Below, in pieces: positions 3,637 to 59,526 of a DNA stretch of 64,000 bases (position 1 is its first letter; the number at the start of each line of letters is the position of its first letter). This DNA comes from an uncultured Candidatus Saccharibacteria bacterium. GTDB taxonomy: Bacteria > Patescibacteriota > Saccharimonadia > Saccharimonadales > Saccharimonadaceae. The notes beneath the pieces were generated by a model. The model was not told the DNA's origin. It was given only the letters and a program-made list of their open reading frames with translations, and did not search any database. Position numbers and translations under genes: made by a program. Where the stretch lies: NCBI GenBank assembly GCA_947304155.1, contig CAMZAD010000003.1, forward strand, positions 7,345 through 71,344, read 5' to 3'.

Positions 3637-5526
<1,890 letters not shown>

Positions 5527-5582: not shown

Positions 5583-5611
5583 ATTATAGACCATTAGCAC
5601 TCATTATGCAA
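5583..5611 (-). promoter_or_regulatory. dnaK promoter overlapping CIRCE
   Basis: On the minus strand: TTGCAT (complement of 5606-5611), 17-nt spacer, TATAAT (complement of 5583-5588). The -35 lies in the spacer of the perfect CIRCE. Confidence 0.55.
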
Positions 5612-5620
5612 GAGTGCTAA
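5594..5620. promoter_or_regulatory. CIRCE operator (HrcA binding site), perfect consensus
   Basis: TTAGCACTC-attatgcaa-GAGTGCTAA, an exact match to the CIRCE inverted repeat. Confidence 0.85.
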
Positions 5621-5676
5621 TACAGGGGTGGCACGAGAAAAATAATGGTTTTTTGAAGATTTTTAGAAACTCTAGA

Positions 5677-6294: not shown

Positions 6295-6325
6295 ACCCTT
6301 ATTTTATCATATTTATAGATGTAGT

Positions 6326-7156: not shown

Positions 7157-7311
7157 AGTATTACCTCGTTTACTTAACGACGGCACTATATCAAAGTCCA
7201 AAAATAACACAAGCATAAGCGTCTTATTTTACAAAATAACAGGGGTAATTTCAGACTTTTTTAATTGCCATAAGCGTTTATAAATTAGCATAAGTGTGTT
7301 ATAATGCGAAT

Positions 7312-8022
7312 ATGGATGGTCTTTTATCTGGAGATGGTGTACAGATTTGCATTATTTTTCTGGCTGCGCTAGTAAATGCATCTCTTCAACTTGGACTAGG
7401 TTCCCTGCTTTTGCTATACCACGCCAGCCTCGGTAAACACATCAAGAAAAAGACTAAAATACTCGCATCAAATTACATTCTTGGCTCATTAGTCTTCATT
7501 GGCTTAATGGTGGCCGCGAGCAGTTTCATTATCGCAACAGTAGCCGGCAGCACTCTCCCAGTAGAAGTTTTATCACTTCTCGTTGTCATCATGTTTATCC
7601 TCGCAGTAATTATCTGGTTCTTCTATTACCAAACTAAGCGCTCGACTGAACTATGGCTACCAAGATCGGTCTCAAGATACATTAGCACCCGCGCGAAAAT
7701 CACCGAAAGCAATACTGAAGCATTCTCGCTCGGTATGCTCGCAACCTTCGCTGAAATGCCGTTCTCAGCCGTGTTGATGGTTGTAGCCGGAAACTCAGTA
7801 ATCACATTATCTACCAACTGGCTCCAAATTCTCTCGGTCATCGGATACACATTAATCGCAATCCTACCGCTTCTAGTTTTAAGATTCTGTATCCGGCATG
7901 GCAAGACCGTGGTGGACATACAAAAATGGCGCATGAAAAACAAAAGTTTCCTAAAAGTGATGTCTGGAGTCGGATTCGTCACACTCGCAACGTTCATTAT
8001 CGCATTTAAGATTATGGGGTAG
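7312..8022 (+). CDS. Polytopic membrane protein, unknown function
   Basis: About six hydrophobic segments. The ORF-track GTG at 7294 lies within TGtTATAAT (7297-7305). ATG 7312 is 6 nt downstream of the -10 box. Confidence 0.45.
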   Translation: MDGLLSGDGVQICIIFLAALVNASLQLGLGSLLLLYHASLGKHIKKKTKILASNYILGSLVFIGLMVAASSFIIATVAGSTLPVEVLSLLVVIMFILAVIIWFFYYQTKRSTELWLPRSVSRYISTRAKITESNTEAFSLGMLATFAEMPFSAVLMVVAGNSVITLSTNWLQILSVIGYTLIAILPLLVLRFCIRHGKTVVDIQKWRMKNKSFLKVMSGVGFVTLATFIIAFKIMG

Positions 8023-8024
8023 TA

Positions 8025-8267
8025 ATGAGAGAAGAAGTCACTAAGGAAAAGATTAGAGACGATATCCTGAGAGAAGCGCGAGTTTTAAAAATTCAGATTG
8101 GAACCGCGGAAATAATCGCAGATAAAGTTTCAGAAAAAGTGTTTGGTTGGAGTAAGAAGCGTTCAATAATTACAGTGGATGACTTGAACCATCAAATCGC
8201 AAAAGAAGTAGCAAAGTTTAATAAAGATTTGGCATATTTATTTGAAAGCCGAGGAAAGATAATTTAA
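8025..8267 (+). CDS. Small cytoplasmic protein, possibly ATP-cone-like (tentative)
   Basis: 80-aa ORF starting 3 nt after the preceding stop. Weak resemblance to ATP-cone domains (EKIRDDI...; DDLNHQIAKEVAKFNKDLAYLFESR). Not verifiable here. Confidence 0.3.
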   Translation: MREEVTKEKIRDDILREARVLKIQIGTAEIIADKVSEKVFGWSKKRSIITVDDLNHQIAKEVAKFNKDLAYLFESRGKII

Positions 8268-8278
8268 GAAGGAGGTAT

Positions 8279-9709
8279 ATGAAGAAATTTGATTATGATT
8301 TAGTAGTGATTGGCAGCGGCGCAGCTGGCGGAACCGCAGCAATGATGGCCGCAAAATCTGGCCTTAAAACTGCGCTTGTTGAAGCTGGTGCGTGGGGTGG
8401 TACAAATGTAAATCGCCGCGATATTCCTTCTGCCGCAGCATTGCATTTCTCACAAACCTTCTTTGGCGCAATCGAAATGAGCCGACTTGGTCTTTCTTCA
8501 ACCGCCCTCAAATATAACTATCCTTCAGTCTTAAACTGGAACCTCGTCGCCCAAAAACGTGCTGGCGCAAACAGCAAAAAAGACTTCGAAGAAGCTGGCA
8601 TTAAATGTATTTCAGGCTTTGCACAATTCATTTCAGCAAACGAAATTTCAGCTGGCGATGCTGGCAAAATCTCTGCTAAGAATTTCATCATTGCAACTGG
8701 CGCAACTCCAATTGATCCAGGTATTACTGGTGCAGCTGAAGCTGGCTGTTTACTTCCTGATGACGTCTTTACTTTACGTAGATTACCAAAGGTTGTAATG
8801 GTAGTTGGTGGCGGCAGCACAGGTTGTGAAGTCGCTGAATACCTTGCCGAGATGGGCTCAAAAGTTTTGATTGCAGAAATTTCTGAGCGCTTGCTTCCAA
8901 AGGAAGATCCAGAAGCTGGTGAGGTAATTGAAAAGAGATTCTCAAAGACATTAGATATGAAAGTCTTGACCAGTACTCGCGTTGTTGCAGCTACAAAAGC
9001 TGGCATGGAAGTTTTGCCATCTGGCCGCAAGACTCAAGTTATTAAGGTTAACTTGATGCGTGGCGGACAAGAAAAATCCGTCAAAGTTGAAGCAGTTGTG
9101 CTCGCAACTGGCTCTGAGCCAGCTGTCGACTTAGGCCTTTCTAACGCTGGCGTAAAATTCAGCAACAAAGGCATTAACGTCCTCCCAACTATGCAAACTA
9201 CCGTAAAAAATATCTACGCAGTTGGCGACGTTGCAAACGTCACAACCGAAAAACGTGCAGACGTAGTTGATATTTCTTCAACCGAGAAGGCAAGCTACGA
9301 AGCAGCAACCGCAGCGGCAAACCTCATTAACAAGGCTAAAACAGTTGTAGTTTACAAAGGCTTCGTTCGCATGACCAACACCTTCCCTCGCGTGGCTGCA
9401 ATTGGCTTAACTGAAGACGAGTGCATTAGTCGCGATTTGAAATATAAGCAAGTACTCGTACCACTTTCAGCTGTTTCAGCTTCAAACACCGAAGACTACC
9501 AAGATGGCTTCGTAAAGTTTGTCGTGAACCGCGAAAAGAAAATCATCGGTGCAACAATTGTCGCGCCATACGCCGATTTAATGATTCATGAAATTGCGCT
9601 CGCAATGCGCTCTGATCTCAAAGTAATTGAGCTCGCATCTTTGCCACACGTTGAACAAAGCTGGGGCGAAGCAGTTCACATCGCAGCAAGAAGAATTGCA
9701 AGAGGCTAA
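8279..9709 (+). CDS. FAD/NAD(P)-dependent pyridine nucleotide-disulfide oxidoreductase family protein lacking the redox-active CxxxxC
   Basis: YDLVVIGSGAAGGTAA (FAD GxGxxG), VVGGGSTGCEVAEY (NAD GxGxxG), AVGDV, and a C-terminal dimerisation region with HVEQS. AGGAGG SD upstream. Active-site region reads GGTNVNRRDIPSAA. Confidence 0.8.
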   Translation: MKKFDYDLVVIGSGAAGGTAAMMAAKSGLKTALVEAGAWGGTNVNRRDIPSAAALHFSQTFFGAIEMSRLGLSSTALKYNYPSVLNWNLVAQKRAGANSKKDFEEAGIKCISGFAQFISANEISAGDAGKISAKNFIIATGATPIDPGITGAAEAGCLLPDDVFTLRRLPKVVMVVGGGSTGCEVAEYLAEMGSKVLIAEISERLLPKEDPEAGEVIEKRFSKTLDMKVLTSTRVVAATKAGMEVLPSGRKTQVIKVNLMRGGQEKSVKVEAVVLATGSEPAVDLGLSNAGVKFSNKGINVLPTMQTTVKNIYAVGDVANVTTEKRADVVDISSTEKASYEAATAAANLINKAKTVVVYKGFVRMTNTFPRVAAIGLTEDECISRDLKYKQVLVPLSAVSASNTEDYQDGFVKFVVNREKKIIGATIVAPYADLMIHEIALAMRSDLKVIELASLPHVEQSWGEAVHIAARRIARG

Positions 9710-9710
9710 T

Positions 9711-11345
9711 TTGAAACGCACAAAAAAAGACGGTTTTGGAAAACGAAATCGTCTTTTTGATGTGCTTTTCATGGTGATTTTAATCGCGATTTATTCGATT
9801 GTTAGTTTTATTAATCTTGGCGACTGGAATTCACCGCAAACTTTTTATAGGTTCGGGACAGGCGAGACGGTAAACTTTATTTTACCAGAGAAAACTGAAG
9901 TTTCCAGCATGATGATTTATGTTGGAACTTGTAATAATGATTTTAGCTTGAGCTATCGTTATTCGAGAAAAGATGCCGATAAAAGTAGCGATTTTTCGGA
10001 CGAGGATTTTTACGCTTTTCAGAGCACTGGAATAAGTGGGCCATTTAGATGGGAGCGGATTGGACTCGGTAAGACTGCGCGAGTTTTCTCAATCAAGAAC
10101 ACGAGTGGGCGCACGATTTACCTTGGCGAAGTGGCATTTATCAAGGATGGCACGCCAATCGGTGGTGTTGATGCACGAAAAATCGTAGCGTATCAGAGTG
10201 AGAACGACGACGCAAATGTTTTGACCGACGAACAGAGCTTAGTGCCAGAACAATCGAACTTCATGAATTCATCTTACTTTGATGAACTATATTTTGCACA
10301 GACTGCTTACCAATATGCGAACGGACAATATGGCTATGAAAATGTCCATCCACCGCTTGGAAAAATCTTGCAGTCTATCCCGATTACTTTAACCGGGCAC
10401 ATGTCGCCACTTACTTGGAGATTAGCCGGAAACATCGCGGGAATTCTAATAATTCTTGTAGTGTACTTTTTGGCAGAAGAGGTTTTTGGTAGCAAGAGCT
10501 ACGCGAGACTAGCGGCAGTTTTAGTTTCACTTTGTGGACTACATTTCGTGCAGACGAGGGTTGGGACGATTGATTCACATCTCTGTTTATTTACGGCACT
10601 GTCGTTCTTGTTTATGTTGAAATTTATTCATAAGGACAAGTGGCGATATTTCGTTTTGTCTGGACTTTTCTTTGGATGCGCGGCATCTGTAAAGTGGAGC
10701 GGGTTCTTTGGCGGAATTGGTCTTGCGATAATGTTCTTCTATCATATCTATAATACTCGCTTTAAGCTAAAAAAGAAGAAAGAAAGTGCCTTTGCAATTT
10801 TGATGGGCGCACTTTGTTTTGTGTTAGTTCCGGCCGTGATTTACTTTGGTTCGTATCTTCTTTTCCCTGCCACGACCAACGCAAAGTCGTTTAACGATGT
10901 GATTGCGCAAGGCAACCATCTTTACACTTTCCACGCCACACTTCAAGACAATCACCCATCTGCGTCTCCGTGGTTCTCGTGGCCAGTTTCTGGCAAGCCG
11001 TTCCTTTACTATTTGAACGATGGTAAGGTAATTAAGCTATTTGGCAATTATGTGATTTGTTATACTTCGCTTCTTGGCCTGGCGCTAACGGCATACTATG
11101 CAATTCGTAAAAAGGATAAGAAGTCCTGCTTCATGCTCGTGGCATTCTTGTCGCTACTCTTGCCATACATGTTTATTTCGCGCACAATGTATCTTTATCA
11201 TTATTTGCCGGCGAGTATTTTTGCGATTTTGATGCTCGTAAATGTCTTTAGGTTAGTGCCGGAAACAAGAAGATATATTTATTATTTCCTAGTAGCCGTA
11301 CTAGTTTGTTTCATCGTTTCCTACCCAGCGATGACTGGTGTTTAA
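9711..11345 (+). CDS. GT-C family (PMT/GT39-like) polyprenol-phosphate-sugar-dependent protein glycosyltransferase
   Basis: YFDELYFAQTAYQY...ENVHPPLGKIL loop (DE motif plus HPPLGK) followed by many TM segments. Start is uncertain: TTG 9711 just after the previous stop, or ATG 9771. The ORF-track start at 9627 overlaps the upstream gene. Confidence 0.75.
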   Translation: MKRTKKDGFGKRNRLFDVLFMVILIAIYSIVSFINLGDWNSPQTFYRFGTGETVNFILPEKTEVSSMMIYVGTCNNDFSLSYRYSRKDADKSSDFSDEDFYAFQSTGISGPFRWERIGLGKTARVFSIKNTSGRTIYLGEVAFIKDGTPIGGVDARKIVAYQSENDDANVLTDEQSLVPEQSNFMNSSYFDELYFAQTAYQYANGQYGYENVHPPLGKILQSIPITLTGHMSPLTWRLAGNIAGILIILVVYFLAEEVFGSKSYARLAAVLVSLCGLHFVQTRVGTIDSHLCLFTALSFLFMLKFIHKDKWRYFVLSGLFFGCAASVKWSGFFGGIGLAIMFFYHIYNTRFKLKKKKESAFAILMGALCFVLVPAVIYFGSYLLFPATTNAKSFNDVIAQGNHLYTFHATLQDNHPSASPWFSWPVSGKPFLYYLNDGKVIKLFGNYVICYTSLLGLALTAYYAIRKKDKKSCFMLVAFLSLLLPYMFISRTMYLYHYLPASIFAILMLVNVFRLVPETRRYIYYFLVAVLVCFIVSYPAMTGV

Positions 11346-13010: not shown

Positions 13011-13850
13011 ATGAAGAGATTGGTGGTTTTTCTTGTAACAATGTTTTTTCTCACTGGTTTGATTTCCTGTACTAATAATGCAGACGAGACTAGTGGGAAT
13101 ATCGCCTCTTCAAGTTCAATCGTTTCTTCTGAGCCTGAGACCTCCTCTATTGAGGTGGCAGGCAGCTCGATTGAAACCATTGAAAGTATTGAAGAGAGTA
13201 GTAGTACTGTTGAGACGAAAGAATCAACAGAGGCTTCCACGGAGCCGACCGAGGAATCCACGCCGGAGCCTACAGAAGAGCCTTCTGTAGAGCCAACCAC
13301 GGAATCTACGCCGGAACCTACATCTACTCCGGAGCCGACGGCAACGCCGACGCCGAAGCCAACCGAGGAACCGACTACGGAATCCACACCAGAGCCTACT
13401 GTTCAGCCGACGGTTCAGCCGACCTCTACGCCGACCCCGACTTATTCCACCGCGCTTGAGAGTTACATTGCAGATGGTAATCTTACAGACTCCGAATGTA
13501 ATTCTTATGCTACTGGACTTGGCGCTACTCGATATGCAATGGGTAAAGATAGTATTCTGTTTATATTTGGGGAGTCCTACACAATGTCGCTTGGAACAAG
13601 TGCAGACTCTGGAGGTGTGTATATTGCTATTGGCCATTTCACAACTTTCACCTACGATGACCCATTAATCAACACTTACTACTGTGAGGCTGGAGCCGGC
13701 TCCAATTCTAAGCTACAAATCTTTAGTGATGGGACTTATTGCACGCTTGAAGAAGTAATCTACTTTGAAAAGCTTGTTAGTTACATGAAGTCTCATCCTG
13801 ACCCCTACACAAAACCTTCGCTTGACGGCGTAGAGTGGTGGGAATGGTAA
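13011..13850 (+). CDS. Lipoprotein with Ser/Thr/Pro/Glu-rich linker and a C-terminal globular domain
   Basis: Lipobox LTGLIS-C at residue 20, GGGAGG SD upstream, and a long (S/T)EP(T/S) low-complexity linker. Confidence 0.65.
   Translation: MKRLVVFLVTMFFLTGLISCTNNADETSGNIASSSSIVSSEPETSSIEVAGSSIETIESIEESSSTVETKESTEASTEPTEESTPEPTEEPSVEPTTESTPEPTSTPEPTATPTPKPTEEPTTESTPEPTVQPTVQPTSTPTPTYSTALESYIADGNLTDSECNSYATGLGATRYAMGKDSILFIFGESYTMSLGTSADSGGVYIAIGHFTTFTYDDPLINTYYCEAGAGSNSKLQIFSDGTYCTLEEVIYFEKLVSYMKSHPDPYTKPSLDGVEWWEW
13221..13448 (+). repeat. Low-complexity Pro/Thr/Glu-coding repeats (PEPT-type) within the lipoprotein gene
   Basis: Encodes STEASTEPTEESTPEPTEEPSVEPTTESTPEPTSTPEPTATPTPKPTEEPTTESTPEPTVQPTVQPTSTPTPT. 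Confidence 0.8.
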
Positions 13851-13974: not shown

Positions 13975-14051
13975 CGCGGGGTAGAGCAGCCTGGTAGCTC
14001 GTTTGGCTCATAACCAAAAGGTCGTTGGTTCAAATCCAACCCCCGCCACCA
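13975..14051 (+). tRNA. tRNA-Met (CAU), initiator type (tRNA-fMet-like), CCA encoded
   Basis: CGCGGGGTAGAGCAGCCTGGTAGCTCG...CTCATAA...GGTTCAAATCC...CCCCGCCACCA is very close to my recollection of E. coli tRNA-fMet. C1 is unpaired with C72, and A73-CCA is encoded. Confidence 0.85.
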
Positions 14052-14063
14052 CGCAAGAAGTGT

Positions 14064-14089
14064 AGCAAGCAAAAAAGCTTGCTTTTTTA
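14064..14089 (+). terminator. Intrinsic terminator after tRNA-fMet
   Basis: AGCAAGC-aaaaaa-GCTTGCT hairpin followed by TTTTT. Confidence 0.7.
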
Positions 14090-14097
14090 GTTGCTTG

Positions 14098-15396
14098 TTA
14101 GAAGTTTGATAAGTTTTCTGATTCGCCATTATTGGCATCGCCAGCACAGCCGCTAACCGTACCATTATTGGCAACCCAACAGTTCATTGTCACCCAGAAG
14201 AGTTTCTTCAAGGTCGAGTCTTCACCACCAGTAAGATTTAGCTCAAATTCCGGATATGGGAAGGTTGTGTCCGTTAAATCAATGCGAGCTTCTACGCGGC
14301 GATACAAATCATTAGCGCGACCGGTTGAATCTACTCTAGCTTGTAAACTTGTGAAGATAAAACGTTCACTCTCATTGAACTCTGAAGTTTTATACATCGC
14401 AAGCGATACATCAGTTTCTGGCTCACCGTATGGAAGTGATAAAATCAAGAACGTGGCATTAGTATTGCGCTTATTCGAGTTTTTGAAGGTTTTTGGCAAA
14501 GTAATTTCCGCATAGCACATCCAGTCATTATCTTCATTACATTTAATTCTATATGGCTCATTCATACCCTTGTTAGCTGAATTTCCCCATTCTGCGACCG
14601 GGACCGAGTTGGTCGCAGCGTTTTTATCTGGCACAAAGTAAAGCATGCCGGTATCGGTTTGGTTTGAAGCTTTTGAAACGGACAACTCAGAAAGATTAAA
14701 TTCCTCGTCTGCCTGAATTAATCTCACACTAAGTGTGGTTGGCATTTGTTGATCGCCATCGCAAGAACCGGCTCTATAGAAGTATTCTGGACAGAATTTA
14801 ATTGAATGACCAGCATCTGAATGAGCTTTAACGGCGTTGGCTTGTGAGAACCAACGAATCTTGATGTAAGCATCACCACTTTCAGTGAAGCCAGTAATTG
14901 GGATAACTCGCATACGGTTGTTTGAATCAAGTGTAGTGCGATAATCTTCAAGGTTTTCTTGGATTGTAACGCAGGTATAAGACTGGAGCATGTTTGCGTT
15001 GTTGCCAGTATCGCTCGAGTTCTGAGTTTCCTGAATCACAACGGCATTTTCGGTAGATTCGTTTGCTTCACGAGTTAAGACATTTTTAACCGTTGAACAA
15101 TCTTGATTTTTCATGCCTTCGGTCATGTGTTTAATAATCTCACCACAATAACCGGTTCCGGCAACATAACCGCGAGCAAGACAATCATGGTAACGCGTAA
15201 TTGCGATTTTTGCATCTTCAACACCAGCAAGAGCGGAGTCATAGGCGGACTGAGAAAGGTCGTTATTAGTCGTTTTGGTCGCTTCAGAAATCATTAGTCT
15301 CGTGAAGGCGAGAGTAATAATCGACAAAATGATAATCGAGAATACCACGATAAACATTGAAGCGCCGCCACGTTTTTTCTCTTGGAATGCTTTCAT
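14098..15396 (-). CDS. PilX-like / minor-pilin-like pilus assembly protein
   Basis: N-terminus KKRGGASMFIVVFSIIILSIITLAFTRLM resembles the PilX N-terminal domain. It is the last gene of the pilin-like operon. AAAGGAGAG SD upstream. Confidence 0.55.
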   Translation of the reverse strand: MKAFQEKKRGGASMFIVVFSIIILSIITLAFTRLMISEATKTTNNDLSQSAYDSALAGVEDAKIAITRYHDCLARGYVAGTGYCGEIIKHMTEGMKNQDCSTVKNVLTREANESTENAVVIQETQNSSDTGNNANMLQSYTCVTIQENLEDYRTTLDSNNRMRVIPITGFTESGDAYIKIRWFSQANAVKAHSDAGHSIKFCPEYFYRAGSCDGDQQMPTTLSVRLIQADEEFNLSELSVSKASNQTDTGMLYFVPDKNAATNSVPVAEWGNSANKGMNEPYRIKCNEDNDWMCYAEITLPKTFKNSNKRNTNATFLILSLPYGEPETDVSLAMYKTSEFNESERFIFTSLQARVDSTGRANDLYRRVEARIDLTDTTFPYPEFELNLTGGEDSTLKKLFWVTMNCWVANNGTVSGCAGDANNGESENLSNF

Positions 15397-15408
15397 ATCT
15401 CTCCTTTC

Positions 15409-16305
15409 CTACTTCTTTTCACCGAATGCCTGAATTGCAAAATTAAATTTATTGATTGCACAGTATGCAAAATCTGTCGAGATTCCATCTGGTGGGTCAG
15501 AACAGAAGTTGCCAGTAGCGTTGATATTAATTCCACCGCGTAAAGTTGCAAGAACGAAGGCTGCAGAATAAAAACCAGAGCTACTCATATTATGAACGGT
15601 TGGAGCAAAGACGGTAAAGTCATACAAAGCAATATCACTCTCAGCATAAGTTGAGCTATTAGTTTGGTCTAGGAGTTCGACGTGAACTGATGGAGTAATT
15701 GAAAGTTCATAAATCGGATTGTCGTCATAGGCGTAGGTATTTTCAAGCATATGTTCGCGACATAGTTTTCTATCTACGTCAGTTAACTTCAAAAGTTTGT
15801 ATTCTTGAGTACTATTGCTTCCGAGTTTAAATGAGCCTCTATAGCTACCAGAGCTAAGATGTTCATAGTCGGTATTATTAATAGCATAAGCTGTGTTCCA
15901 AATGTAACTATATTGACCAGTGCAAAGCACACCATTAGTTGGCACATATTCTTCAGTACTACCACCATTAGTTTTAATTTTCACTTTACCATAGCGCTGC
16001 TGATAAATTAGTTTTCTAGCGTTGTCATTTATACAACTTGTATAGGCCGTGCTGCTAGCTTCATATTGACTGAGACAAATATTCTGGACGGTACGTGGAG
16101 GAGTTGAAGCAATGGCACGAGATATATCGTCGATAATACTACGACCACTCGCGTTGATGGTTTTAATTGAAAGACCTTTTTGGTAAGTCGCGGTAATATG
16201 GATTGTCAAAAAACCAATCGTGAGCAGAAGAATCGAAATGAACGTCAATGCAAAAGTAAGCTCAATGAGCGTAAAACCATTTTTTCTTGATGTTTTATTT
16301 CTCAT
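15409..16305 (-). CDS. Type IV pilin-like protein (prepilin-type N-terminal cleavage/methylation motif), large modular pilin
   Basis: MRNKTSRKNG|FTLIELTFALTFISILLL. The start at 16305 is preferred because an SD (AGGAAAGG) lies upstream. The ORF-track start 16326 is also possible. Confidence 0.75.
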   Translation of the reverse strand: MRNKTSRKNGFTLIELTFALTFISILLLTIGFLTIHITATYQKGLSIKTINASGRSIIDDISRAIASTPPRTVQNICLSQYEASSTAYTSCINDNARKLIYQQRYGKVKIKTNGGSTEEYVPTNGVLCTGQYSYIWNTAYAINNTDYEHLSSGSYRGSFKLGSNSTQEYKLLKLTDVDRKLCREHMLENTYAYDDNPIYELSITPSVHVELLDQTNSSTYAESDIALYDFTVFAPTVHNMSSSGFYSAAFVLATLRGGININATGNFCSDPPDGISTDFAYCAINKFNFAIQAFGEKK

Positions 16306-16318
16306 ACTTCCCTTTCCT

Positions 16319-17152
16319 TTAATCATTTAGCATTTCTGGATTATACAAACGAATCGTAGTTGAAAGGACAGATGGTGTTTCGTGGCCAGGTGCAAACCAA
16401 CAAGTTCGAATATGATAATCAATAAATTCTGGAGTTTTGTCTACACCTTTAGTAACATCTCTTGATGCAATCACCCAAATACCTTCGGCCTTTTCTACTG
16501 TATCAAAGACTGCTGCATTTTGCATCGTGGCAGTGCCGCCAGTAGCACCACCGGCAGTATTTTCGGAAATTGCACCATCGTCATTAGTTTGGCCTGCGGC
16601 GTTCGAGAAAACTAATCGTGGATATACTGGTGCTTCAATGAATTTTTTCTGACCAACGTATTCATCGTCTGCTCTAATAATTGTAAAGTTAATATCGTTT
16701 GGATTTAGTTTTCTAGTATTAATCACAAAGGCGTGGTCTTTATAGATATTATGGATTGGATTGTCACTATTGTCTTTATCATAAAAAGCTGAACACTTGG
16801 TTGCGTTACTATATTTTGAGATTTCGGTTGGCAAGTTTACAGTACCGGTAGTTGTGCCTTCAATTGTGACGGAGTGGTCACGAGAAATGCGATACCATAA
16901 ACCTTGATAAGCGCGGTTATTTGGAGCTAGTTTGCTTTCAGAAAGATAGGCATTGTGGATGAAACGAATTGCCTCAGCTTGGGCATCAATTTCATTTCTA
17001 GCCATTTCGAGTTCCATCGCACCTTGGATTGCAGCAAGATCTTTATCCATAATTTGGAGCGACAAAACCGAGATTAGTGAAAATACGCCAATCGCAAAAG
17101 TCACTTCTATTAAAGTGTCACCTTTTTTAAGCCATTTCTTTACAAAGGACAT
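16319..17152 (-). CDS. Pilin-like protein with an atypical prepilin motif (G|DTLIEV)
   Basis: MSFVKKWLKKG|DTLIEVTFAIGVFSLISVL, with Glu at +5 and a hydrophobic helix. Overlaps the upstream gene by 13 nt. Confidence 0.65.
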   Translation of the reverse strand: MSFVKKWLKKGDTLIEVTFAIGVFSLISVLSLQIMDKDLAAIQGAMELEMARNEIDAQAEAIRFIHNAYLSESKLAPNNRAYQGLWYRISRDHSVTIEGTTTGTVNLPTEISKYSNATKCSAFYDKDNSDNPIHNIYKDHAFVINTRKLNPNDINFTIIRADDEYVGQKKFIEAPVYPRLVFSNAAGQTNDDGAISENTAGGATGGTATMQNAAVFDTVEKAEGIWVIASRDVTKGVDKTPEFIDYHIRTCWFAPGHETPSVLSTTIRLYNPEMLND

Positions 17153-18108
17153 TTCAACCTCGAATCTTCTTCCATTAATAGCTCAACTGATGTTTCAGAC
17201 ATACCACCTTTATAGGCTGCGCCACTATCATAAAGCCCGGATGAGCTGCTAATTCTAACTGCACGGCGTTGTTCATTAGATTGCAAGTCGTCTGAGCCAA
17301 TACAGAATTCAGTAGTTTGAGAAGTTTTCATTAAGTTGTTTTTAAGCGCGGTCATTAGGAGGTCATCTTTTCTGCTAGCAAAAGAAGTGCACGATGAGCC
17401 ATCTGGGAGAGCGGTATTAATATCATTAAGCCATTGTTGAATTTCAAGTGTGCCGGTGCCGGTATATTTAAATGAGCGAATAGTACCAGAAACTGGTGAG
17501 CGCACAATCATGATTGCGCCTTTATAAAGGTTTTTGTCGACAGTGGTATCCTCAATTCTTGCACCCCAACGCAAATCATAGGTATTCATATTGCCAGCAA
17601 GGCCGACTTTGCAAAGTGATTGATTAGTTTTTTGTGGCCTGATTGTAACGATGTTGGCTTGGACTTTTTCAAGCGCATCAATAGTATCGTCGAGACCACT
17701 AATGTCAATGTTATCAACAGAAGCTAGGCCAATAATATCATAGCGGTGGACTCTGCTAGAGTTCTGTTCGCCAAAGGTAACGAGTTGGCCGTAAACTGCA
17801 CAGTTAGTGCGGCCTGGATAATTATCTGAATCCGAGTTTTCTACGATAGTAGTTGAGCCACCAACAGTTTTATAGGCGCTCGAAATCGTACAATACTTGC
17901 TGCTTTCTTCATCTTTCTGACGAACGTTCTCAACGTTTGATGTTGCGGAGTAAGCGCTGCGTAAGTTTTCGACGAGATCGTTTAACGAATCAGTGTAGCG
18001 ACGATGGCTAACGGTTGATGAAATATTAACCATGATTGCTGCAAAGAAGAGACCAGAAATAGCCAAGAAAAGTGCAACTTCAATTAATGTAAAGCCTTTA
18101 GTTTTCAT
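17140..18108 (-). CDS. Type IV pilin-like protein (prepilin-type N-terminal motif)
   Basis: MKTKG|FTLIEVALFLAISGLFFAAIM. Start at 18108 is supported by a GAAAGGAAAA SD. The ORF-track start is 18147. Confidence 0.75.
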   Translation of the reverse strand: MKTKGFTLIEVALFLAISGLFFAAIMVNISSTVSHRRYTDSLNDLVENLRSAYSATSNVENVRQKDEESSKYCTISSAYKTVGGSTTIVENSDSDNYPGRTNCAVYGQLVTFGEQNSSRVHRYDIIGLASVDNIDISGLDDTIDALEKVQANIVTIRPQKTNQSLCKVGLAGNMNTYDLRWGARIEDTTVDKNLYKGAIMIVRSPVSGTIRSFKYTGTGTLEIQQWLNDINTALPDGSSCTSFASRKDDLLMTALKNNLMKTSQTTEFCIGSDDLQSNEQRRAVRISSSSGLYDSGAAYKGGMSETSVELLMEEDSRLKCPL

Positions 18109-18532
18109 TTGCAATTTTCCTTTCACAAAGTGTTTGGCGCGCGTCATAGTCTAACTCTTCTTCCATAGTCGTGATTTTATATTCATAAATGGCATAGAAC
18201 ATTTCCCTTGCGGTATTGTAGTAACCAATATTACAATAATAGACTGCACTGGCGAGACCATAATAATATTTATCTTTTACATCTCGGCTTTCCCAACCGT
18301 TCTTAAGCTCATTTTCGAGTTCTTTGTCGCGGCCTTTCGAATAATCATATTCGTCGACAGTGCGAAGAATCGCTTTGCGATGATAATTTGGGTCGTTGCC
18401 AGTGATTTTTTCGCTCACAGCCGGAAGAACCACAAATAACATTGCGACAAATAAGATGCTTAGTGTGATGATTATTTCGAAAAACATTTTTTTATAATTT
18501 ATCTCATCTTTTTTTGCGGTTTTTTTAACCAT
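18098..18532 (-). CDS. Small N-terminally anchored protein of the pilin operon, Tyr-rich, unknown function
   Basis: TM segment MFFEIIITLSILFVAMLFVVLPAV, AGGAGA SD upstream, and an 11-nt overlap with the downstream pilin gene. Confidence 0.5.
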   Translation of the reverse strand: MVKKTAKKDEINYKKMFFEIIITLSILFVAMLFVVLPAVSEKITGNDPNYHRKAILRTVDEYDYSKGRDKELENELKNGWESRDVKDKYYYGLASAVYYCNIGYYNTAREMFYAIYEYKITTMEEELDYDARQTLCERKIANEN

Positions 18533-18540
18533 TTCGTCTC

Positions 18541-21500
18541 CTAATACCTTGGGGCAAGCTCCCTAATATAGGTTGCGATTGCTTCGGAGTTGCCGCCAGC
18601 TTGGGTGCGGGACCAGATATATGTATCAGAGCGAAGGTTGAAGATTTCGGCAGGGGCAGCGGAACCGTTCTTGCTATCGGCATCTTGAACGTTATCACCG
18701 ACCGTGCGGTTCAGGACATTTGTGGTATCAGTACCATAGCCGTGGTGAGCGCCAGCCGTACGATTTAAGATAATGTTTTGAGCAAAGACTGGGCCATTTA
18801 CCATGAGTGTTCTATAACACTTCGATCTCTCCTTAACTGCGGTTATCATATCAAACTGCAAAGAGCCATCTGGATTAAAGCCCACAGTAGAGTCAGCACT
18901 GTTCAAGTTAAAGTCTGAACAAGTGTTAACATCAGTTTCAGAGAAGAGCCATGCATCAATACGATTAACGTCCTGAGTGATGTTGATTTTATTTGCAAAG
19001 ATGAGAATTTGAGGAAGGGTAGCTGGAGCAGTGGTTTTGCTGTTTTTGTAGGTAGATAGTTTTGTAGGATTATAGCTTTGCTCACAGTACTTATTCAACT
19101 CACTTGCACCGATATAACAGATGTTTTTATCGATTGTGACAGTACCAGTTGAATAAATAATTAAGGTGTTATCAACAACATTACCAGAAGAAATGGCAGC
19201 ATCCGACAAGAAGCGCTTTACAAGCATGCTATTATTTATCACAGCAGTATTGTATGAGCTAGCACCAGCAACGGTACCCTTCTTAATTTCTGAAATCTTA
19301 AGATCAGAATTAGTGTAAACATATTGAAGAGCAGATGAGGTTGTATAAAGTTTTTTACTACTACCAGTTCCAAGCGACGCAGAGAGACTTGCGGCCTTAT
19401 CACGATAGCGTGCTTTCATTTTTTCAATCACAGAAGCAACTGAAGTCGAAGCGTTGATTTGACTCTTACCGAGCTCATCTTTATTATCATTGCTAATTGT
19501 AAGTGGGCTAGAATTTTGTTTGAAGGAAGTTGCCTCAAGACCACTTTTTGCAAGCTTCAAGTAGTGATAGCCATTATTGTAGCCAAGACTTGCACCAGAG
19601 CCGAAGCCTTTTACCGTGTTCCCGGCAATAACGGCATAGTCTGCCCATGAGCCGAAGATAGTTTGGGTTGCACTATATCCAGAAGTATCTTCATCGACTT
19701 CCCCCTCGCCACTAGTATCTCCGCCGGTTGAACCATAGCCAATGCCTGCGCGTTTTTGAGTGATTGAAGTATTAATCTTGCCTTCAGTATAGATTGAACC
19801 GTTCCAAACTTGGAAGGTTGGTTTTTTAGCAACTGTGCGGCAAGATGCGTTTGAAATATTCCAATACGAACCGCCGTCCATAGCTGAGCCATCGGGATTA
19901 CTATTAGCAGTATTACCCTTACTATACTGAGTTTTTAGGGTATCTTTAAAGTCGTGAGAATCTGACGGATAAATACCAGCTGCAACACAGTATTTATAAC
20001 CGATATATTCTTTGTCGTCTGGAATAATTGAGACAAGGTTGCGACTTCCGGTTGTGCCGCCGAGACCAGCCATATTGAGATTTCCCTTAACGGAATCGTC
20101 GATAGTATGACATCCGGTTGTGCCAGAATAATACGAACATGGGTCTTTAGTAGATTTCGCGTTACCAGCAATATTGACGCTTTCTTTCTTGGTGGTTGGT
20201 GAAATCAAGAATTCAATCAACACAACCTTACTGTCTGCAGGAGTTGATGTGGCATATTTTTCTGAAGCATTTTTTGTAGTGTATTTATTTGCGCGTGGAA
20301 GAATCTGCCATGAGAAATTCGTGCTAATTGAAGTGCCTTGATATACGATATCTTCGGAGCTAACTGAGGCGGCGATTGAAGTTTCGAAGTTGTATGGTAC
20401 GAAGACATCGGCTATTTTTGTTTGGCGAGAGCCAGCAGAGACTGTGGTGTCATACTTGAAGGTGGTCGGGAAGGATGGAGTACCATAGTCATAGCTATCC
20501 CAACTACCGCCAATTTTATAACCATAGTCAGTAGCAGAGGACCATTGAGTACAATAATTTGGACCATGCACGCTTGTTGAATTCGTATGCCAGTGTCCAG
20601 GAGCACATGCACTAGACCAGTCATTTGTGCCAACATATTCATAGACTCCATTATAGTGTTGCGCGTATGTCCCATAAGTATAAGTATAAGTGCCACACGT
20701 CTTTGAAGTTGGACTTTGATTTGGACAGCTTGGTGTTGGCCCATTCATATTGCCGTTATGCGAAGATAATGCACCCGCAACACTGGTATTTTCCATATTA
20801 CTAATAACTGGTTCTGTTTTAGAAGTTGCACATTGACAGTTTGTTGCAGTAGTATGCTTATACTTTTCATACGCTTTAGCGCTGCTAAACTTATGGAATT
20901 GGGAAACATATTGACCTACTACGCTATTCACACCGGTTTTGGCAGCGGAATTACAATATGCTCCAGCAAGGTCAGGGACTTGATATCCACCGCTAATGAA
21001 ATCGCCATATGCATTACAATCAAAGTCGTAGCTAGTTAGGCTTGGCGAAATAACCGAAATACCATATTCGTCCGTTGAACCCGTAATGTCATTGCCGGTT
21101 CCAGTGACTGTAGCAAAGATACCTTTGGCGGTTGTGATGTGGTTATTATATATCGCTCGTCTAGGTGTAGTGTAATCAGAAATTGGACTGACGTGGGTTG
21201 TATTGTATTGAGGAATTGGATTTGTAACAAAACTGAAATCATCGCCCGTGATAATGTTATTCGCGCCAATTTCAACGTAGTGGTTCGAGAAAGCTGGAAC
21301 TATAGTTCTTTTATCATCCGTTACAGCCGAGACATATTCCGTATTGGTATTTGTCGCCTTTCGGACATACCGATCGCCAACGCAAATCTCATGCAGGAAG
21401 TGCACACTATCCCCTGGTTTCGCCAGGGTATACGTTATTTTATCACCATCCGTCCAACCAGAGTCGGCTGGATAATCAGTGCTATAACGATATGATGAAG

Positions 21501-22485
21501 TTGATGGGCCCCAAGTGTCTGATGAAACGTGCTTGCCATCAAGCGTCATGTTCTCAACCGCAATCCTAGTCTTAGTCTCACCAGCATAAGTTGTCATAGT
21601 GGTTTTTTCTTTACAGTTGATTGGGGTGATGTTTGTTGTGGTTGTAGTAGTGGTAGTGGTTGCCGCAGCATCAGAACAGAACCAACCAAGCTTCTTACTA
21701 CTCCAAGTCATGCCACCATTTTGCGGCTTAGCATAGAACTCAGCGTTTTCCATGAATTTTGCCCTCGTAGTATAGTAGTCCGAATACATCGACGTAATCG
21801 AGCTCCCAAGTGGCACACCAAAAGTTGTGCCGTTATAGACATACGAGTCAGTTGAAGTGAGCATTCCATAATTACTCAGGTAAGTATCGAGTGTTGATTG
21901 TGGGATAATCGGTATGCCATTTGCATCCGTTGAGTAATTCCAGTTGCGTTCATTACCATGCACGTTATAGTTCATAGTTACTGGTCCAACTAGGCCAGAA
22001 TAAACTTTTTGACCAGTTCCTGAGAAAGTATAATACCTTGTAAAGTAGATGTATGCGTAGCCGCCGCCGGTCTTACAGCCCGTAATGCGGATTTGTTTTC
22101 CATCATCGTTAAGCTCGAGGTTTACACCAGGGTTTCTTAGGACGCCATTATATAGCTCGGAGACAGAAAAGTTATCCGACGGAGCAGGAACTTTAAGCCA
22201 GAAACCACCGTTACTACTTGCCGTAGTATCGCTCCAGTGATAGCAATAGTGGTGAACGTTAGTGCCTTCTTTACAAGTTGGAACAGCCGAACCTCCTTCG
22301 CCGGAGCCACCCGTCTGCGTAGTTCCACCAAAAGTCGTTGAGGTGCTACCGTGACCGTGATTGTTCTCTGCGTAAACAATACCACCAATCGCGAGAGCTG
22401 ATAACGCAATTAAGGCAACACCAACAAAATTGGAAATAATATGCCCAACTTTTTCTTTATTAATTCTCGGTTTGATTGATTTCAT
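18541..22485 (-). CDS. Giant (1314 aa) secreted Cys/Thr/Tyr/Asn-rich protein, candidate pilus-associated adhesin
   Basis: Start at MKSIKPRINKEK (GGTGGAGAA SD; ATG 22485 follows the upstream stop at 22487-22489). Signal/anchor is VGVALIALSALAIGGIVYA. No motif I can assign. Contains a TTTTTTTTT run. Confidence 0.6.
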   Translation of the reverse strand: MKSIKPRINKEKVGHIISNFVGVALIALSALAIGGIVYAENNHGHGSTSTTFGGTTQTGGSGEGGSAVPTCKEGTNVHHYCYHWSDTTASSNGGFWLKVPAPSDNFSVSELYNGVLRNPGVNLELNDDGKQIRITGCKTGGGYAYIYFTRYYTFSGTGQKVYSGLVGPVTMNYNVHGNERNWNYSTDANGIPIIPQSTLDTYLSNYGMLTSTDSYVYNGTTFGVPLGSSITSMYSDYYTTRAKFMENAEFYAKPQNGGMTWSSKKLGWFCSDAAATTTTTTTTTNITPINCKEKTTMTTYAGETKTRIAVENMTLDGKHVSSDTWGPSTSSYRYSTDYPADSGWTDGDKITYTLAKPGDSVHFLHEICVGDRYVRKATNTNTEYVSAVTDDKRTIVPAFSNHYVEIGANNIITGDDFSFVTNPIPQYNTTHVSPISDYTTPRRAIYNNHITTAKGIFATVTGTGNDITGSTDEYGISVISPSLTSYDFDCNAYGDFISGGYQVPDLAGAYCNSAAKTGVNSVVGQYVSQFHKFSSAKAYEKYKHTTATNCQCATSKTEPVISNMENTSVAGALSSHNGNMNGPTPSCPNQSPTSKTCGTYTYTYGTYAQHYNGVYEYVGTNDWSSACAPGHWHTNSTSVHGPNYCTQWSSATDYGYKIGGSWDSYDYGTPSFPTTFKYDTTVSAGSRQTKIADVFVPYNFETSIAASVSSEDIVYQGTSISTNFSWQILPRANKYTTKNASEKYATSTPADSKVVLIEFLISPTTKKESVNIAGNAKSTKDPCSYYSGTTGCHTIDDSVKGNLNMAGLGGTTGSRNLVSIIPDDKEYIGYKYCVAAGIYPSDSHDFKDTLKTQYSKGNTANSNPDGSAMDGGSYWNISNASCRTVAKKPTFQVWNGSIYTEGKINTSITQKRAGIGYGSTGGDTSGEGEVDEDTSGYSATQTIFGSWADYAVIAGNTVKGFGSGASLGYNNGYHYLKLAKSGLEATSFKQNSSPLTISNDNKDELGKSQINASTSVASVIEKMKARYRDKAASLSASLGTGSSKKLYTTSSALQYVYTNSDLKISEIKKGTVAGASSYNTAVINNSMLVKRFLSDAAISSGNVVDNTLIIYSTGTVTIDKNICYIGASELNKYCEQSYNPTKLSTYKNSKTTAPATLPQILIFANKINITQDVNRIDAWLFSETDVNTCSDFNLNSADSTVGFNPDGSLQFDMITAVKERSKCYRTLMVNGPVFAQNIILNRTAGAHHGYGTDTTNVLNRTVGDNVQDADSKNGSAAPAEIFNLRSDTYIWSRTQAGGNSEAIATYIRELAPRY

Positions 22486-22486
22486 T

Positions 22487-23299
22487 TTAGTTCTCCACCT
22501 GGCTACTATCAGAATCAACTTTTACGAATTTTTTGAGGTCGTTGTCGTAATAATACATGTTATTTTCCCTGTTTTTTCTCCAGGATTCGCAGTACTCGTT
22601 GCCTTTTTTGATGTCGCCGAGCTTACCATAAAGCCTACATTTAATGTGGTCATAGAAATATTTTTGCTTGTCATTTAGTGTGATTTTTTGCTTATCAAAA
22701 TCCTGGATAAAATCATTGGTTTCACTAGTGCAGTCATATTCTATCGCGACATCATAAAGATATAAAGTATAAAGAATTTTATGCTCTTTTGATGGGTTCT
22801 TTGTTTTTATTAACGCATTGCCATTATCGATAATTTTGGCGCAGCGTAGAATACTATCTTCGTAGATTCCTTCAATTATTTCAGCTTCAATGGTTGCGCT
22901 GAATTTCTTTTCAAGCAATTCGCCACTTGGAATATCGTCAATTTCATAATCGCCAATATTAATATCGGCTGGCTTCTCATAGTTGTCATCGTCAGGAACT
23001 GCGATTGGGACATCCTTTGGCGAAGTAAGACAAATTACCAAAAACACTGCGCCAACAATCAAGGCAACAAGAATGAGAAAAATGCCGAGTGAGAGGATTT
23101 TGTGTTTTTTAATCCAAAGGTTGCGGGAGTTGCGCCTTGCGTCGCGTTTTTCGCGCTTCAGTCTTTTCTTCTCAAGCTCCGCTTCGGAAGGGGCTGTTTT
23201 TTTAGTGTCTGAAGAATTAGCCTCTGGAAAAATTTCCCAAGGATGCTTATTTACCTCATTCACAGGAGGCTGCGAATTATCTTGACCTTCGTTCCCCAT
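22487..23299 (-). CDS. Bitopic membrane protein, unknown function (first gene upstream of the giant protein)
   Basis: Charged N-terminal region, TM ILSLGIFLILVALIVGAVFLVICL, and an extracytoplasmic Tyr/Cys-containing domain. Confidence 0.5.
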   Translation of the reverse strand: MGNEGQDNSQPPVNEVNKHPWEIFPEANSSDTKKTAPSEAELEKKRLKREKRDARRNSRNLWIKKHKILSLGIFLILVALIVGAVFLVICLTSPKDVPIAVPDDDNYEKPADINIGDYEIDDIPSGELLEKKFSATIEAEIIEGIYEDSILRCAKIIDNGNALIKTKNPSKEHKILYTLYLYDVAIEYDCTSETNDFIQDFDKQKITLNDKQKYFYDHIKCRLYGKLGDIKKGNEYCESWRKNRENNMYYYDNDLKKFVKVDSDSSQVEN

Positions 23300-23343
23300 A
23301 CTACTTATGATTATATTTTATGCAAGCAAAATAGTCAACGAAA

Positions 23344-23796
23344 TTACAGATTAAAAAGGAAGGTCATCCATTGGTCGAAATTGGTTTTTTCGTTCAAAAT
23401 TGCCTTCTCTTCGGCAGTGTTTTCTTTGTGCTTATTTTTGGCTTCGTCAGAATTTTTTGGCAGCGCAATCATCGTCTCGCCTTTTTGCTTTTTGTTCTGC
23501 AATTTTCGGGCGGCAAGTTCTTGATATTCTTCTGAAGCGTAGTAATCGTTTTCAAGTTCGTCGTTTTCGACTTGAACCTTCAAATATGCGAGAGTGGTTT
23601 TTCGTTCAATAATTTCCTGCTGCAATTCCCAGTTGCGCATGAGCGAAGAAATTGTGCCAATCATGAAAAAGACAATCATCACAGGAATCGCAAAAAGTAC
23701 CACGCGTTCTGGCGCGAGGATTTCTTGCGTAAGTTTCGCTTTGAGACGGCGAACCTTCGCTTCAAGGCGCTGTTTTCTCGATCGTTTTTCTACCAC
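23344..23796 (-). CDS. Septum formation initiator family protein (FtsB/DivIC-like)
   Basis: Single TM (VVLFAIPVMIVFFMIGTI) followed by a coiled coil and an ...YYASEEYQELAARKLQNKKQKGE motif typical of DivIC/FtsB. GTG start is uncertain. Confidence 0.55.
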   Translation of the reverse strand: MVEKRSRKQRLEAKVRRLKAKLTQEILAPERVVLFAIPVMIVFFMIGTISSLMRNWELQQEIIERKTTLAYLKVQVENDELENDYYASEEYQELAARKLQNKKQKGETMIALPKNSDEAKNKHKENTAEEKAILNEKTNFDQWMTFLFNL

Positions 23797-23859: not shown

Positions 23860-23935
23860 GGGGGCATAGCTCAGTGGTTAGAGCAGTCGGCTCATAACCG
23901 ATTGGTCGCTGGTTCAAGCCCAGCTGCCCCCACCA
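23860..23935 (+). tRNA. tRNA with CAU anticodon, most likely tRNA-Ile2 (lysidine-dependent); elongator tRNA-Met not excluded
   Basis: GGGGGCATAGCTCAGTGGTTAGAGCAGTCGGCTCATAACCGATTGGTCGCTGGTTCAAGCCCAGCTGCCCCCACCA. The D arm, variable region and T arm closely resemble my recollection of E. coli ileX. The acceptor stem is fully paired. Confidence 0.8.
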
Positions 23936-59499: not shown

Positions 59500-59526
59500 A
59501 TGCTATTATTATAGCATAAGCGGGTA

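Follow-up and report, generated by a model that had tools for sequence, protein, structure and literature searches.

We analyzed a stretch of 64,000 nucleotides (the window) from an uncultured Candidatus Saccharibacteria bacterium and found that seven minus-strand genes, running from position 23299 to position 14098, probably make up the priming or tip module of a single type IV pilus (T4P) of the T4P-1 type, separated in this lineage from the genes for the pilus motor and platform. We refer to these genes as g1 to g7, numbered in the order of transcription. Four of them (g4 to g7) are orthologous to the four genes that close the canonical T4P-1 locus in Saccharibacteria, and g2 encodes a giant protein whose relatives are found next to T4P-1 genes. 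An original prediction, made from the letters of the sequence, had described a module of minor pilins, a PilX-like protein and a large non-pilin protein, standing apart from its assembly machinery. The orthology of g4 to g7, the linkage of the g2 family to pilM, and the finding of motor genes on other contigs of related assemblies bore this out; the finding is real and more than chance, and the interpretation was right in substance. The organism is a Saccharibacterium (TM7) of a gut or rumen lineage near Nanosyncoccus. A scan of one genome per species gave 36 loci, nearly all from Candidatus Saccharibacteria, the closest of them from the gut or rumen of goats and roe deer; in the same scan, Candidatus Nanosyncoccus nanoralicus (oral group G3) was about 30% identical. 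Saccharibacteria and other ultrasmall Patescibacteria are attached to host bacteria, a way of life for which their type IV pili have been reported to be essential (PMC10633639, PMC12206443).

To compare the operon with T4P loci of its relatives, we fetched 80 Saccharibacteria loci containing PilB (comparison loci are designated by L-numbers) and mapped g1 to g7 onto them by blastp and with hidden Markov models (HMMs) built from our own alignments. The canonical gene order was a small TPR membrane protein, a member of the g2 family, pilM, pilN, pilO, pilB, pilT, pilC, the major pilin, pilD, and then four genes of the H, I, J and K types. In one canonical locus, Pfam matched PilM_2, T2SSF and, twice, T2SSE. 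The N-termini in L099, a Nanosynbacter locus, were close to those of g4 to g7, including GDTLVE in the I-type protein. The family HMM of g7 matched the last gene of T4P-1 loci with E values from 1e-46 to 1e-88, which upholds the description of g7 as a PilX-like subunit, and wherever a canonical locus extended far enough, a gene of the g7 type closed its H-I-J-K series. By blastp, g6 matched the penultimate gene of T4P-1 loci, and a tblastn search with the L034 counterpart matched g4 at E 4e-14.

The same correspondence held for the two published loci. In TM7x, the T4P-1 locus is given as pilM1N1O1B1T C1 A1 D V1 Z1 W1 X1 (Grossman et al., ISME J 2025, PMC12206443 Table S3), and in Southlakia epibionticum the T4P1 locus is given as SEML1_0104-0116 (Wang et al., Cell 2023, PMC10633639). 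The genes g4, g5, g6 and g7 each had one counterpart there, with the order unchanged: PilV1, PilZ1, PilW1 and PilX1 of TM7x, and SEML1_0113-0116 of Southlakia. The window and both published loci had in common a glycine-aspartate junction in the second protein of the quartet and the absence of Glu5 from the last. Unlike the TM7x and Southlakia loci, the window had g4 to g7 detached from pilMNOBTC, pilA and pilD and joined with g1, g2 and g3 in one operon, and its minor pilins were 60-70 aa longer. The tables of the Southlakia study place SEML1_0113-0116 all in essentiality class I by transposon sequencing (PMC10633639 Tables S1, S2), annotate SEML1_0113 as GspH family, and assign to SEML1_0116, by ECOD, a GspK-like pilin domain plus a galactose-binding-like domain (PMC10633639). 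Attempts to delete pilV1 and pilW1 in TM7x were reported to have failed (PMC12206443).

The three minor pilins of the window are g4 (17140-18108, minus strand; 322 aa, GspH type, MKTKG/FTLIEV, where the slash marks the predicted processing site), g5 (16319-17152, minus strand; 277 aa, I type, KKG/DTLIEV) and g6 (15409-16326, minus strand; 305 aa, J type, RKNG/FTLIEL). All three have a class III signal, that is, a short basic leader ending in Gly, followed by a hydrophobic helix with Glu5, and a six-frame search of the window for prepilin motifs recovered only these three genes plus one spurious match. Matches to general pilin models were weak. For g4, Pfam N_methyl (PF07963) scored 18.6 bits against a cut-off of 21.2 and NCBIfam GspH gave E 1.2e-4, both confined to the N-terminus; g6 scored 16.3 bits with TIGR02532, exactly the cut-off, and 17.6 bits with N_methyl, under the cut-off of 21.2. 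There was no match of g5 to N_methyl or TIGR02532 in Pfam and NCBIfam. A census of all the fetched Saccharibacteria orthologues gave a clearer picture. The motif G/FTxxE was present in 81 of 86 H-type and 79 of 82 J-type orthologues and in 122 of 127 major pilins, and G/DTxxE was present in all 93 I-type orthologues; the class III motif with Glu5 was found in none of the 76 K-type (g7) orthologues. The census identifies g4 to g7 as the conserved T4P-1 priming set, which follows the logic of GspH-I-J-K in that the last and largest subunit is the one without Glu5. The I-type pilin thus has Asp as its first mature residue, where the other pilins have Phe. This position is normally N-methylated by PilD, and an acidic residue there is unusual.

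The pilin-like proteins had been described as about twice the size of ordinary pilins, carrying extra domains like the modular minor pilins of Streptococcus sanguinis. The first part of this description did not hold, and the second found no support. The mature lengths of g4, g5 and g6 are 317, 266 and 288 aa, against medians of 246, 199 and 230 aa for their Saccharibacteria orthologues, and these sizes are normal for minor pilins of the GspH, GspI and GspJ types. In g5, the L034 counterpart aligned as two segments around an internal insertion, the extra residues lying between two conserved blocks, and we detected no added domain in g4 to g6 with Pfam or NCBIfam. Since the additional residues sit within the globular part, as an insertion relative to the orthologues, and no extra domain was detected, the comparison with modular pilins is unsupported. 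The window resembles S. sanguinis PilB and PilC (PMC8179133) in its monoderm-type envelope and in having pilin-like proteins larger than the major pilin; it differs in that g4 to g6 had no detected module and the candidate adhesive function lies on a separate, non-pilin protein.

The last gene, g7 (14098-15396, minus strand), encodes a PilX/GspK-type terminal subunit of 432 aa; its position and its profile match make it the equivalent of PilX1 in TM7x and of SEML1_0116 in Southlakia. Its N-terminus reads KRGGASMFIVVF..., a hydrophobic helix without Glu5, and some sources name its homologues PilX. A search of g7 against PDB sequence profiles gave no match even at E≤10. In an AlphaFold 2 (AF2) model with a predicted local distance difference test score (pLDDT) of 79.8, a 64-residue N-terminal helix (residues 11-74) is followed by a beta-rich, jelly-roll-like body. 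The model agrees with the published descriptions of PilX1, and taken alone is no proof of a GspK fold. In order and features, g4 to g7 fit the GspH-I-J-K or FimU-PilV-PilW-PilX quartet. Like the GspH-GspI-GspJ-GspK tip of the type II secretion system (T2SS; GspIJK of enterotoxigenic Escherichia coli, PDB 3CI0), the set comprises four genes in H-I-J-K order, the last of them large and without Glu5. Unlike GspK, g7 appears from its model to carry a jelly-roll-like insert, as do its TM7x and Southlakia orthologues; the insert of GspK is alpha-helical. Also unlike the T2SS, the machine associated with T4P-1 has PilT and makes real pili.

The motor genes were absent from the window, as the original prediction had it. 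Pfam scans of all open reading frames (ORFs) of at least 120 aa found none of the proteins PilM, N, O, B, T, C and D and no further or major pilin, and tblastn searches of the window gave no machinery either when the queries were these seven proteins and the major pilin from Saccharibacteria. Relatives do have PilD in their T4P loci.

The link between g2 and the pilus came from the comparison loci. Of the 61 T4P-1 loci with enough upstream sequence, at least 46 had a g2-family member whose end lay within 400 bp of pilM on its upstream side, and in one more the g2-family gene overlapped pilM. It was sometimes preceded by an overlapping gene for a small TPR membrane protein, a pairing that resembles that of g1 with g2. 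Nanosynbacter genomes (L093, L099) had a g2-family member just before pilM1; the T4P gene list of the TM7x study starts at pilM1 (TM7x_00415), and TM7x_00410 is absent from its tables (PMC12206443). There were also loci with two tandem g2-family members upstream of pilM (L037, at 5584-7560 and 8117-10192; also L040-L042 and L044). In the complete genome of Candidatus Minimicrobia vallesae IHU2 (L089, 6364-7279 and 17609-18752), the g2-family gene appeared to be broken into fragments of 105 and 217 aa, and the g7 orthologue, similarly, into 299 and 85 aa, which could reflect pseudogenization or sequencing frameshifts. A control set of 53 PilB loci (914 kb), all from other phyla, contained a single weak g2-family match, in Nomurabacteria, and no g7 matches. 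The weak match was an ORF segment near position 4665 (plus strand) of L154 (Candidatus Nomurabacteria), about 5 kb upstream of PilB, with E 8e-8 and 29.6 bits to the g2 C-terminal profile; the g2 family may, to judge from this profile score, reach beyond Saccharibacteria.

In relatives of the window, the canonical locus was split. The g2-family gene stood directly before the g4 to g7 orthologues in L024, L025, L029, L031 and L032, and the full g1 to g7 operon was present in 11 of the fetched loci. For the Nanosyncoccus-like and ruminant-gut group, we examined 51 PilC loci, which carried pilMNOBTC, major pilins and pilD; none of the 51 had a g2-family member, and one had a relative of g7. Because none of these motor loci carried the g2 family, it was with the minor pilins, and not with pilMNO, that the family stayed when the locus split. 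Both halves were found on separate contigs in three assemblies: CAZMWH01 (module in L032, motor in L216), JAFQYO01 (L033 and L209) and CAUQIL01 (L014 and L140). From the split locus and these same-assembly pairs, we conclude that the two ends of an ancestral locus came together in the window once the motor genes had left. Lineages outside group G1 are reported to retain locus one only (PMC12206443). PilN was 360-545 aa long in the Nanosyncoccus-like and ruminant-gut group (L199-L249, for example L226, L245 and L246), compared with about 240 aa in G1, and this long-PilN group is the same one that lacks the tip module in its motor locus.

The giant protein g2 (18541-22485, minus strand) is a secreted or anchored protein of 1314 aa, counted from an ATG that is backed by alignment with homologues. 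It begins with a signal or anchor segment (residues 1-39, ...NFVGVALIALSALAIGGIVYA/EN, that is, ...IVYA/EN) and has no prepilin motif. Thr, Ser, Gly and Asn together make up about 40% of the protein, and there are 22 Cys residues; the variable region is rich in all five. There were no matches to g2 at E≤1 in Pfam or NCBIfam. A word-indexed protein search returned 12 full-length homologues, all unnamed and none with a Pfam domain. The identity of g2 to homologues is 26-32% in the N-terminal part and 42-48% in the C-terminal part. In more distant relatives, the match was confined to the C-terminal ~600 residues and always lay at the extreme C-terminus of the relative. This conserved C-terminal domain (residues ~691-1314; 18544..20415, minus strand) defines a large unannotated family, and the tail that ends it, TYIRELAPRY-COOH (18544..18573, minus strand), is the most conserved motif of that family.

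We searched the profile of the g2 domain exhaustively against 1.84 billion cluster representatives (clusters at 50% identity) and recovered 5,656 representatives at E≤1e-3, of which 2,553 reached E≤1e-30. The profile has about 500 positions, corresponding to ~600 residues in g2, which itself matched it with 465 bits over residues 690-1314; member lengths ranged from 373 to 1757 aa. Among 192 family representatives, the domain ended within one residue of the C-terminus in 190, and the last ten residues read [VT]Y[TS][RTK]EL[PA]PR[YFL], at the very C-terminus in ~190 of the 192. Other family motifs were CRTIAKKP..QVW.G, FGSW.EY, PQ[IV].I.A..I.I...V.R[IV]DAWL, NGP[VI] and RTAG. We know of no sorting signal (LPXTG, PEP-CTERM, GlyGly-CTERM) that the family tail, EL[PA]PR[YFL]-COOH, resembles. 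Every source that names a member of the family calls it hypothetical. In an AF2 model of residues 115-1314, the C-terminal domain had pLDDT values of 80-95, except for three loop segments and the tail, and was mostly beta with one long helix; the tail was below 50 in the monomer, and the N-terminal part was of low confidence (pLDDT mostly 30-60). A search of the C-terminal domain against PDB sequence profiles gave no match even at E≤10, and when the model was compared with PDB and BFVD by Foldseek, no match reached E≤1e-3, those returned being generic immunoglobulin (Ig)-like or jelly-roll sandwiches.

Because the domain libraries, the PDB sequence search and the Foldseek search were all blank, g2 is not a homologue of PilY1 or PilC: it lacks a beta-propeller, matches neither a Pfam nor an NCBIfam model, and has no counterpart by fold in PDB. 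The PilY1-like character that had been attributed to g2 is therefore positional only. A VWA domain with the DxSxS motif was found at the N-terminus in one lineage of the g2 family, and the window copy lacks it; PilY1 of P. aeruginosa reportedly has such an N-terminal domain as well. We compared g2 with the system of PilY1/PilC and FimU-PilV-PilW-PilX in Pseudomonas, Neisseria and Myxococcus (Treuner-Lange et al. 2020, as cited in PMC12206443). Like PilY1, g2 is a large non-pilin protein with a signal-like N-terminus, encoded together with four minor pilins and made up of a conserved C-terminal and a variable N-terminal part. Unlike in PilY1 operons, the g2-family gene lies ahead of the pilins and not after pilX, and two small anchored helical proteins are encoded alongside.

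We found no mention of the g2 family in the searched passages of the TM7x, Southlakia and TM7i pilus studies (PMC12206443, PMC10633639), and a full-text search for Saccharibacteria together with PilY1 gave nothing further of relevance. The adhesin proposed in the TM7x study is PilX2, of the dispensable T4P-2 (PMC12206443). On this literature, the minor-pilin part of the operon is a new arrangement of a known system, and the link between the g2 family and T4P appears, within the literature searched, to be undescribed so far.

These results suggest how the module might work. After processing of g4 to g6 by PilD, the three pilins would assemble in the membrane with g7, unprocessed or differently processed, into a complex that starts the pilus and that would end up at its tip, with g7 on top. 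The g2 protein would be exported by Sec and attach to the minor-pilin complex through its C-terminal domain and the ...ELAPRY-COOH tail, displaying its variable N-terminal two thirds at the tip for binding, plausibly to the bacterial host. In such a complex, g2 would do the job that PilY1 does in Proteobacteria, with an unrelated fold, and g1 and g3 might be membrane-anchored helical helpers that hold or load g2. We infer a docking role for the family tail from its being invariant and predicted to be disordered in the monomer. Traits of the g2 family that are consistent with an adhesin are the faster divergence of the N-terminal part (26-32% compared with 42-48% identity) and the VWA domain in one lineage. 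We tentatively propose that the g2 family is the missing tip protein of T4P-1, an analogue of PilY1 whose tail docks on the H-I-J-K complex and whose N-terminal region sets host recognition. We regard this proposal as possible, and the broader reading of the operon as a priming or tip module as probable.

The proposal has several consequences. It makes the g2 family a concrete and testable candidate for the tip or host-binding part of an essential pilus: the family comprises about 5,600 clusters, has no annotation, Pfam model or structural neighbor, and throughout the phylum shows physical linkage to the T4P-1 genes. PilX2, the adhesin candidate put forward in print, is part of a second, dispensable pilus that is absent from lineages like that of the window. 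The split locus amounts to a natural experiment in which g2 stayed with the minor pilins and not with the motor. If the reading is correct, the role of PilY1 would have been filled at least twice, by unrelated folds, and variation in the N-terminal sequence of the g2 family could be read as a marker of host range. The invariant C-terminal tail offers a simple handle for mutagenesis.

Several findings weigh against this picture. We infer the placement of g2 on the pilus from gene linkage and sequence features, and the linkage has exceptions: the g2 homologue of oral Nanosyncoccus (G3) stands alone, far from pilin genes, and Southlakia-like loci have YchF, and not a g2 relative, upstream of pilM. 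Because of these two cases, the linkage is to be called frequent and not obligatory. The hydrophobic segment of g2 spans about 21 residues and could, judged by its length, be an uncleaved anchor, which would not fit a location at the tip. Recognizable adhesin domains were almost absent from the N-terminal regions of 54 diverse members of the g2 family, and only two of the 54 had any Pfam match, both to Ig-like DUF repeats. For g7, there was no match to Pfam PilX_N (PF14341) at E≤1, and among 50 homologues there was one match, at E 0.0028; a Foldseek search of the g7 model against PDB did not retrieve GspK and gave nothing at E≤1e-3, the top matches being jelly-roll proteins. Finally, the scans for motor genes (two with PilB, one with PilC) returned lineages other than the closest clade of the window, and the same-assembly pairs come from sister groups only. 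The expectation that the pilus machinery lies elsewhere in the genome was thus confirmed in three assemblies of sister groups, with pilMNOBTC on other contigs, and in the closest clade of the window the machinery was neither recovered nor shown to be absent.

We considered other roles for g2 that would account for some of these findings. It could be a fixed part of the envelope, such as a collar or anchor in the cell wall or S-layer, with the TPR protein as its assembly helper and g4 to g7 still serving as priming pilins. In most lineages the gene lies right before pilM-pilN-pilO and after the TPR membrane protein, loosely like a secretin with its TPR pilotin, and the C-terminal domain is strongly conserved and widespread, with N-terminal regions that have no recognizable adhesin domains. 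However, when the locus split, the g2-family gene left pilMNO and went with the minor pilins or alone, and the N-terminal two thirds vary in length (over the full range of member sizes given above) and in sequence, which would be unusual for a collar. Saccharibacteria also have no outer membrane that would require a secretin, and we consider a fixed envelope role unlikely. The quartet might instead form the tip of a T2SS-like pseudopilus, with g2 as a cargo that is released or displayed after being pushed through the wall. The GspH-I-J-K pattern, the match of g4 to GspH as its best family, the Sec-type N-terminus of g2, and the attribution of a T2SS to Saccharibacteria in the Southlakia study (PMC10633639) are all compatible with such a role. 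The tail does not discriminate, since it would suit a docking signal and an export signal alike. The linked machinery, however, has PilT, cultured relatives make visible, retractile pili that drive twitching, and we saw no T2SS-specific component in any of the 80 PilB loci, so that secretion of g2 as a cargo seems quite improbable. That g2 is an independent surface adhesin or wall protein, co-expressed with the pilus genes and without a physical link to the pilus, would agree with its solitary position in oral G3 genomes and with the 14 of 61 loci in which it is not beside pilM. But adjacency recurs, both beside pilM and beside the minor pilins, across deep lineages of Saccharibacteria, and the PilB loci of other phyla held a single weak match; we therefore give independence from the pilus little credence.

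A different kind of alternative concerns the whole block, which could be a horizontally acquired island inserted between tRNA genes. The operon is flanked by two tRNA-CAT genes identified with ARAGORN, both on the plus strand, of 77 nt (13975..14051) and 76 nt (23860..23935), each a conserved neighbor outside the module; read off the sequence, the first has a C1/C72 mismatch. This bracket proved to be conserved synteny and not the mark of a mobile block. A tRNA-CAT gene of the 13975-14051 type followed the g7 orthologue in L001, L003, L004, L005, L006, L009, L021, L025, L028 and L032, and both tRNA-CAT genes bracketed the operon in at least six related species (L001, L003, L004, L005, L021 and L028). 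Contigs with g2 homologues had the same seven genes and the same neighbors (Mur ligase, PTA, PMT and a pyridine-nucleotide oxidoreductase), and the operon and its flanks were conserved in several related species at 30-57% protein identity. The GC content across the block was 0.405-0.431, inside the range of the remaining window, and Pfam found no integrase or recombinase domain among window ORFs of at least 120 aa. Because synteny is conserved and the GC content is unremarkable, we take the block to be a stable chromosomal operon, and reject the tRNA-flanked island as exceedingly improbable. Between g1 and the second tRNA gene lies a gene for a 150-aa protein (23344-23796), the L003 counterpart of which is a weak match to DivIC.

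The two remaining genes of the operon encode small anchored proteins, neither of which had a Pfam or NCBIfam match. The first, g1 (22487-23299, minus strand), encodes a bitopic membrane protein of 270 aa, in which a single transmembrane segment links a helical outer domain to a cytoplasmic N-terminus that is conserved (MGNEGQ...KHPWEIFPE); orthologues with 24-32% identity occupied the same position in 10 loci. The L034 counterpart of g1 has Pfam TPR domains, and g1 is likely the counterpart of the anchored TPR protein that precedes the g2 family elsewhere in Saccharibacteria. The profile alignment of g1 with the TPR proteins (hhalign) was weak (E 5e-5, probability 67%) and is only suggestive of a relationship. 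The third gene, g3 (18098-18532, minus strand), encodes an N-terminally anchored helical protein of 144 aa with the conserved motif YYYGLASAxYYCNIGYYNTA. It was confined to the closest clade of the window, with orthologues of 35-47% identity in the closest loci. We rejected g3 as a relative of the TPR proteins, there being no similarity past the transmembrane segment.

The layout of the operon agreed with the description of seven packed, co-directional minus-strand genes between two CAU tRNA genes: all seven ORFs and both tRNA genes were found where they had been placed. Adjacent genes overlapped by 8-13 nt or were separated by gaps of 1-12 nt. Upstream of g1 is a promoter-like site (TTGACT-17 nt-TATAAT; 23310..23338, minus strand) that matches the consensus at 11 of 12 positions and would serve as the promoter of the operon. 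Because of the tight spacing and this near-consensus promoter of their own, we treat g1 to g7 as one unit. The ATG of g1 lies 10 nt past the -10 hexamer, leaving no space for a ribosome-binding site, and the g1 transcript is therefore predicted to be leaderless or nearly so. Between the g7 stop codon and the first tRNA gene there is a hairpin (AGCAAGC-AAAAAA-GCTTGCT; 14064..14083), preceded by an A-run and followed by a T-run on the plus strand, which would be a terminator of the tRNA gene, possibly acting in both directions.

Elsewhere in the window lie the region of the replication origin, with dnaA-dnaN-recF at 53.8-57.6 kb, as well as housekeeping genes and a large cluster for glycan synthesis. 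This cluster spans about 20 kb (26627-47502) and includes Wzy, several glycosyltransferases, UDP-galactopyranose mutase, an ABC-2 exporter and an LGFP-repeat protein. A protein O-mannosyltransferase of the PMT family is encoded at 9627-11345, 2.7 kb from the operon, with an orthologue at the same position in L001. With the PMT gene and the glycan cluster nearby, glycosylation of g2 or of the pilins is conceivable; the TM7x study predicted O-glycosylation for some pilins (PMC12206443). About 120 bp upstream of the first tRNA gene, 13011-13850 (plus strand) encodes a 279-aa protein with a lipoprotein-like signal, a long linker rich in Thr, Pro and Glu, and no family match; the long antisense ORFs there are artefacts of biased composition. 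Beside dnaA-dnaN-recF, the region 57572-63847 contains two paralogues (58087-59499 and 60045-61391) that have Phage_lysozyme2 and Peptidase_C39_2 domains, along with small ORFs and an ORF of 819 aa (61388-63847) for which Pfam gave no match. This region may be the counterpart of the unusual, essential, origin-adjacent type IV secretion system cluster of Southlakia, SEML1_0006-0019.

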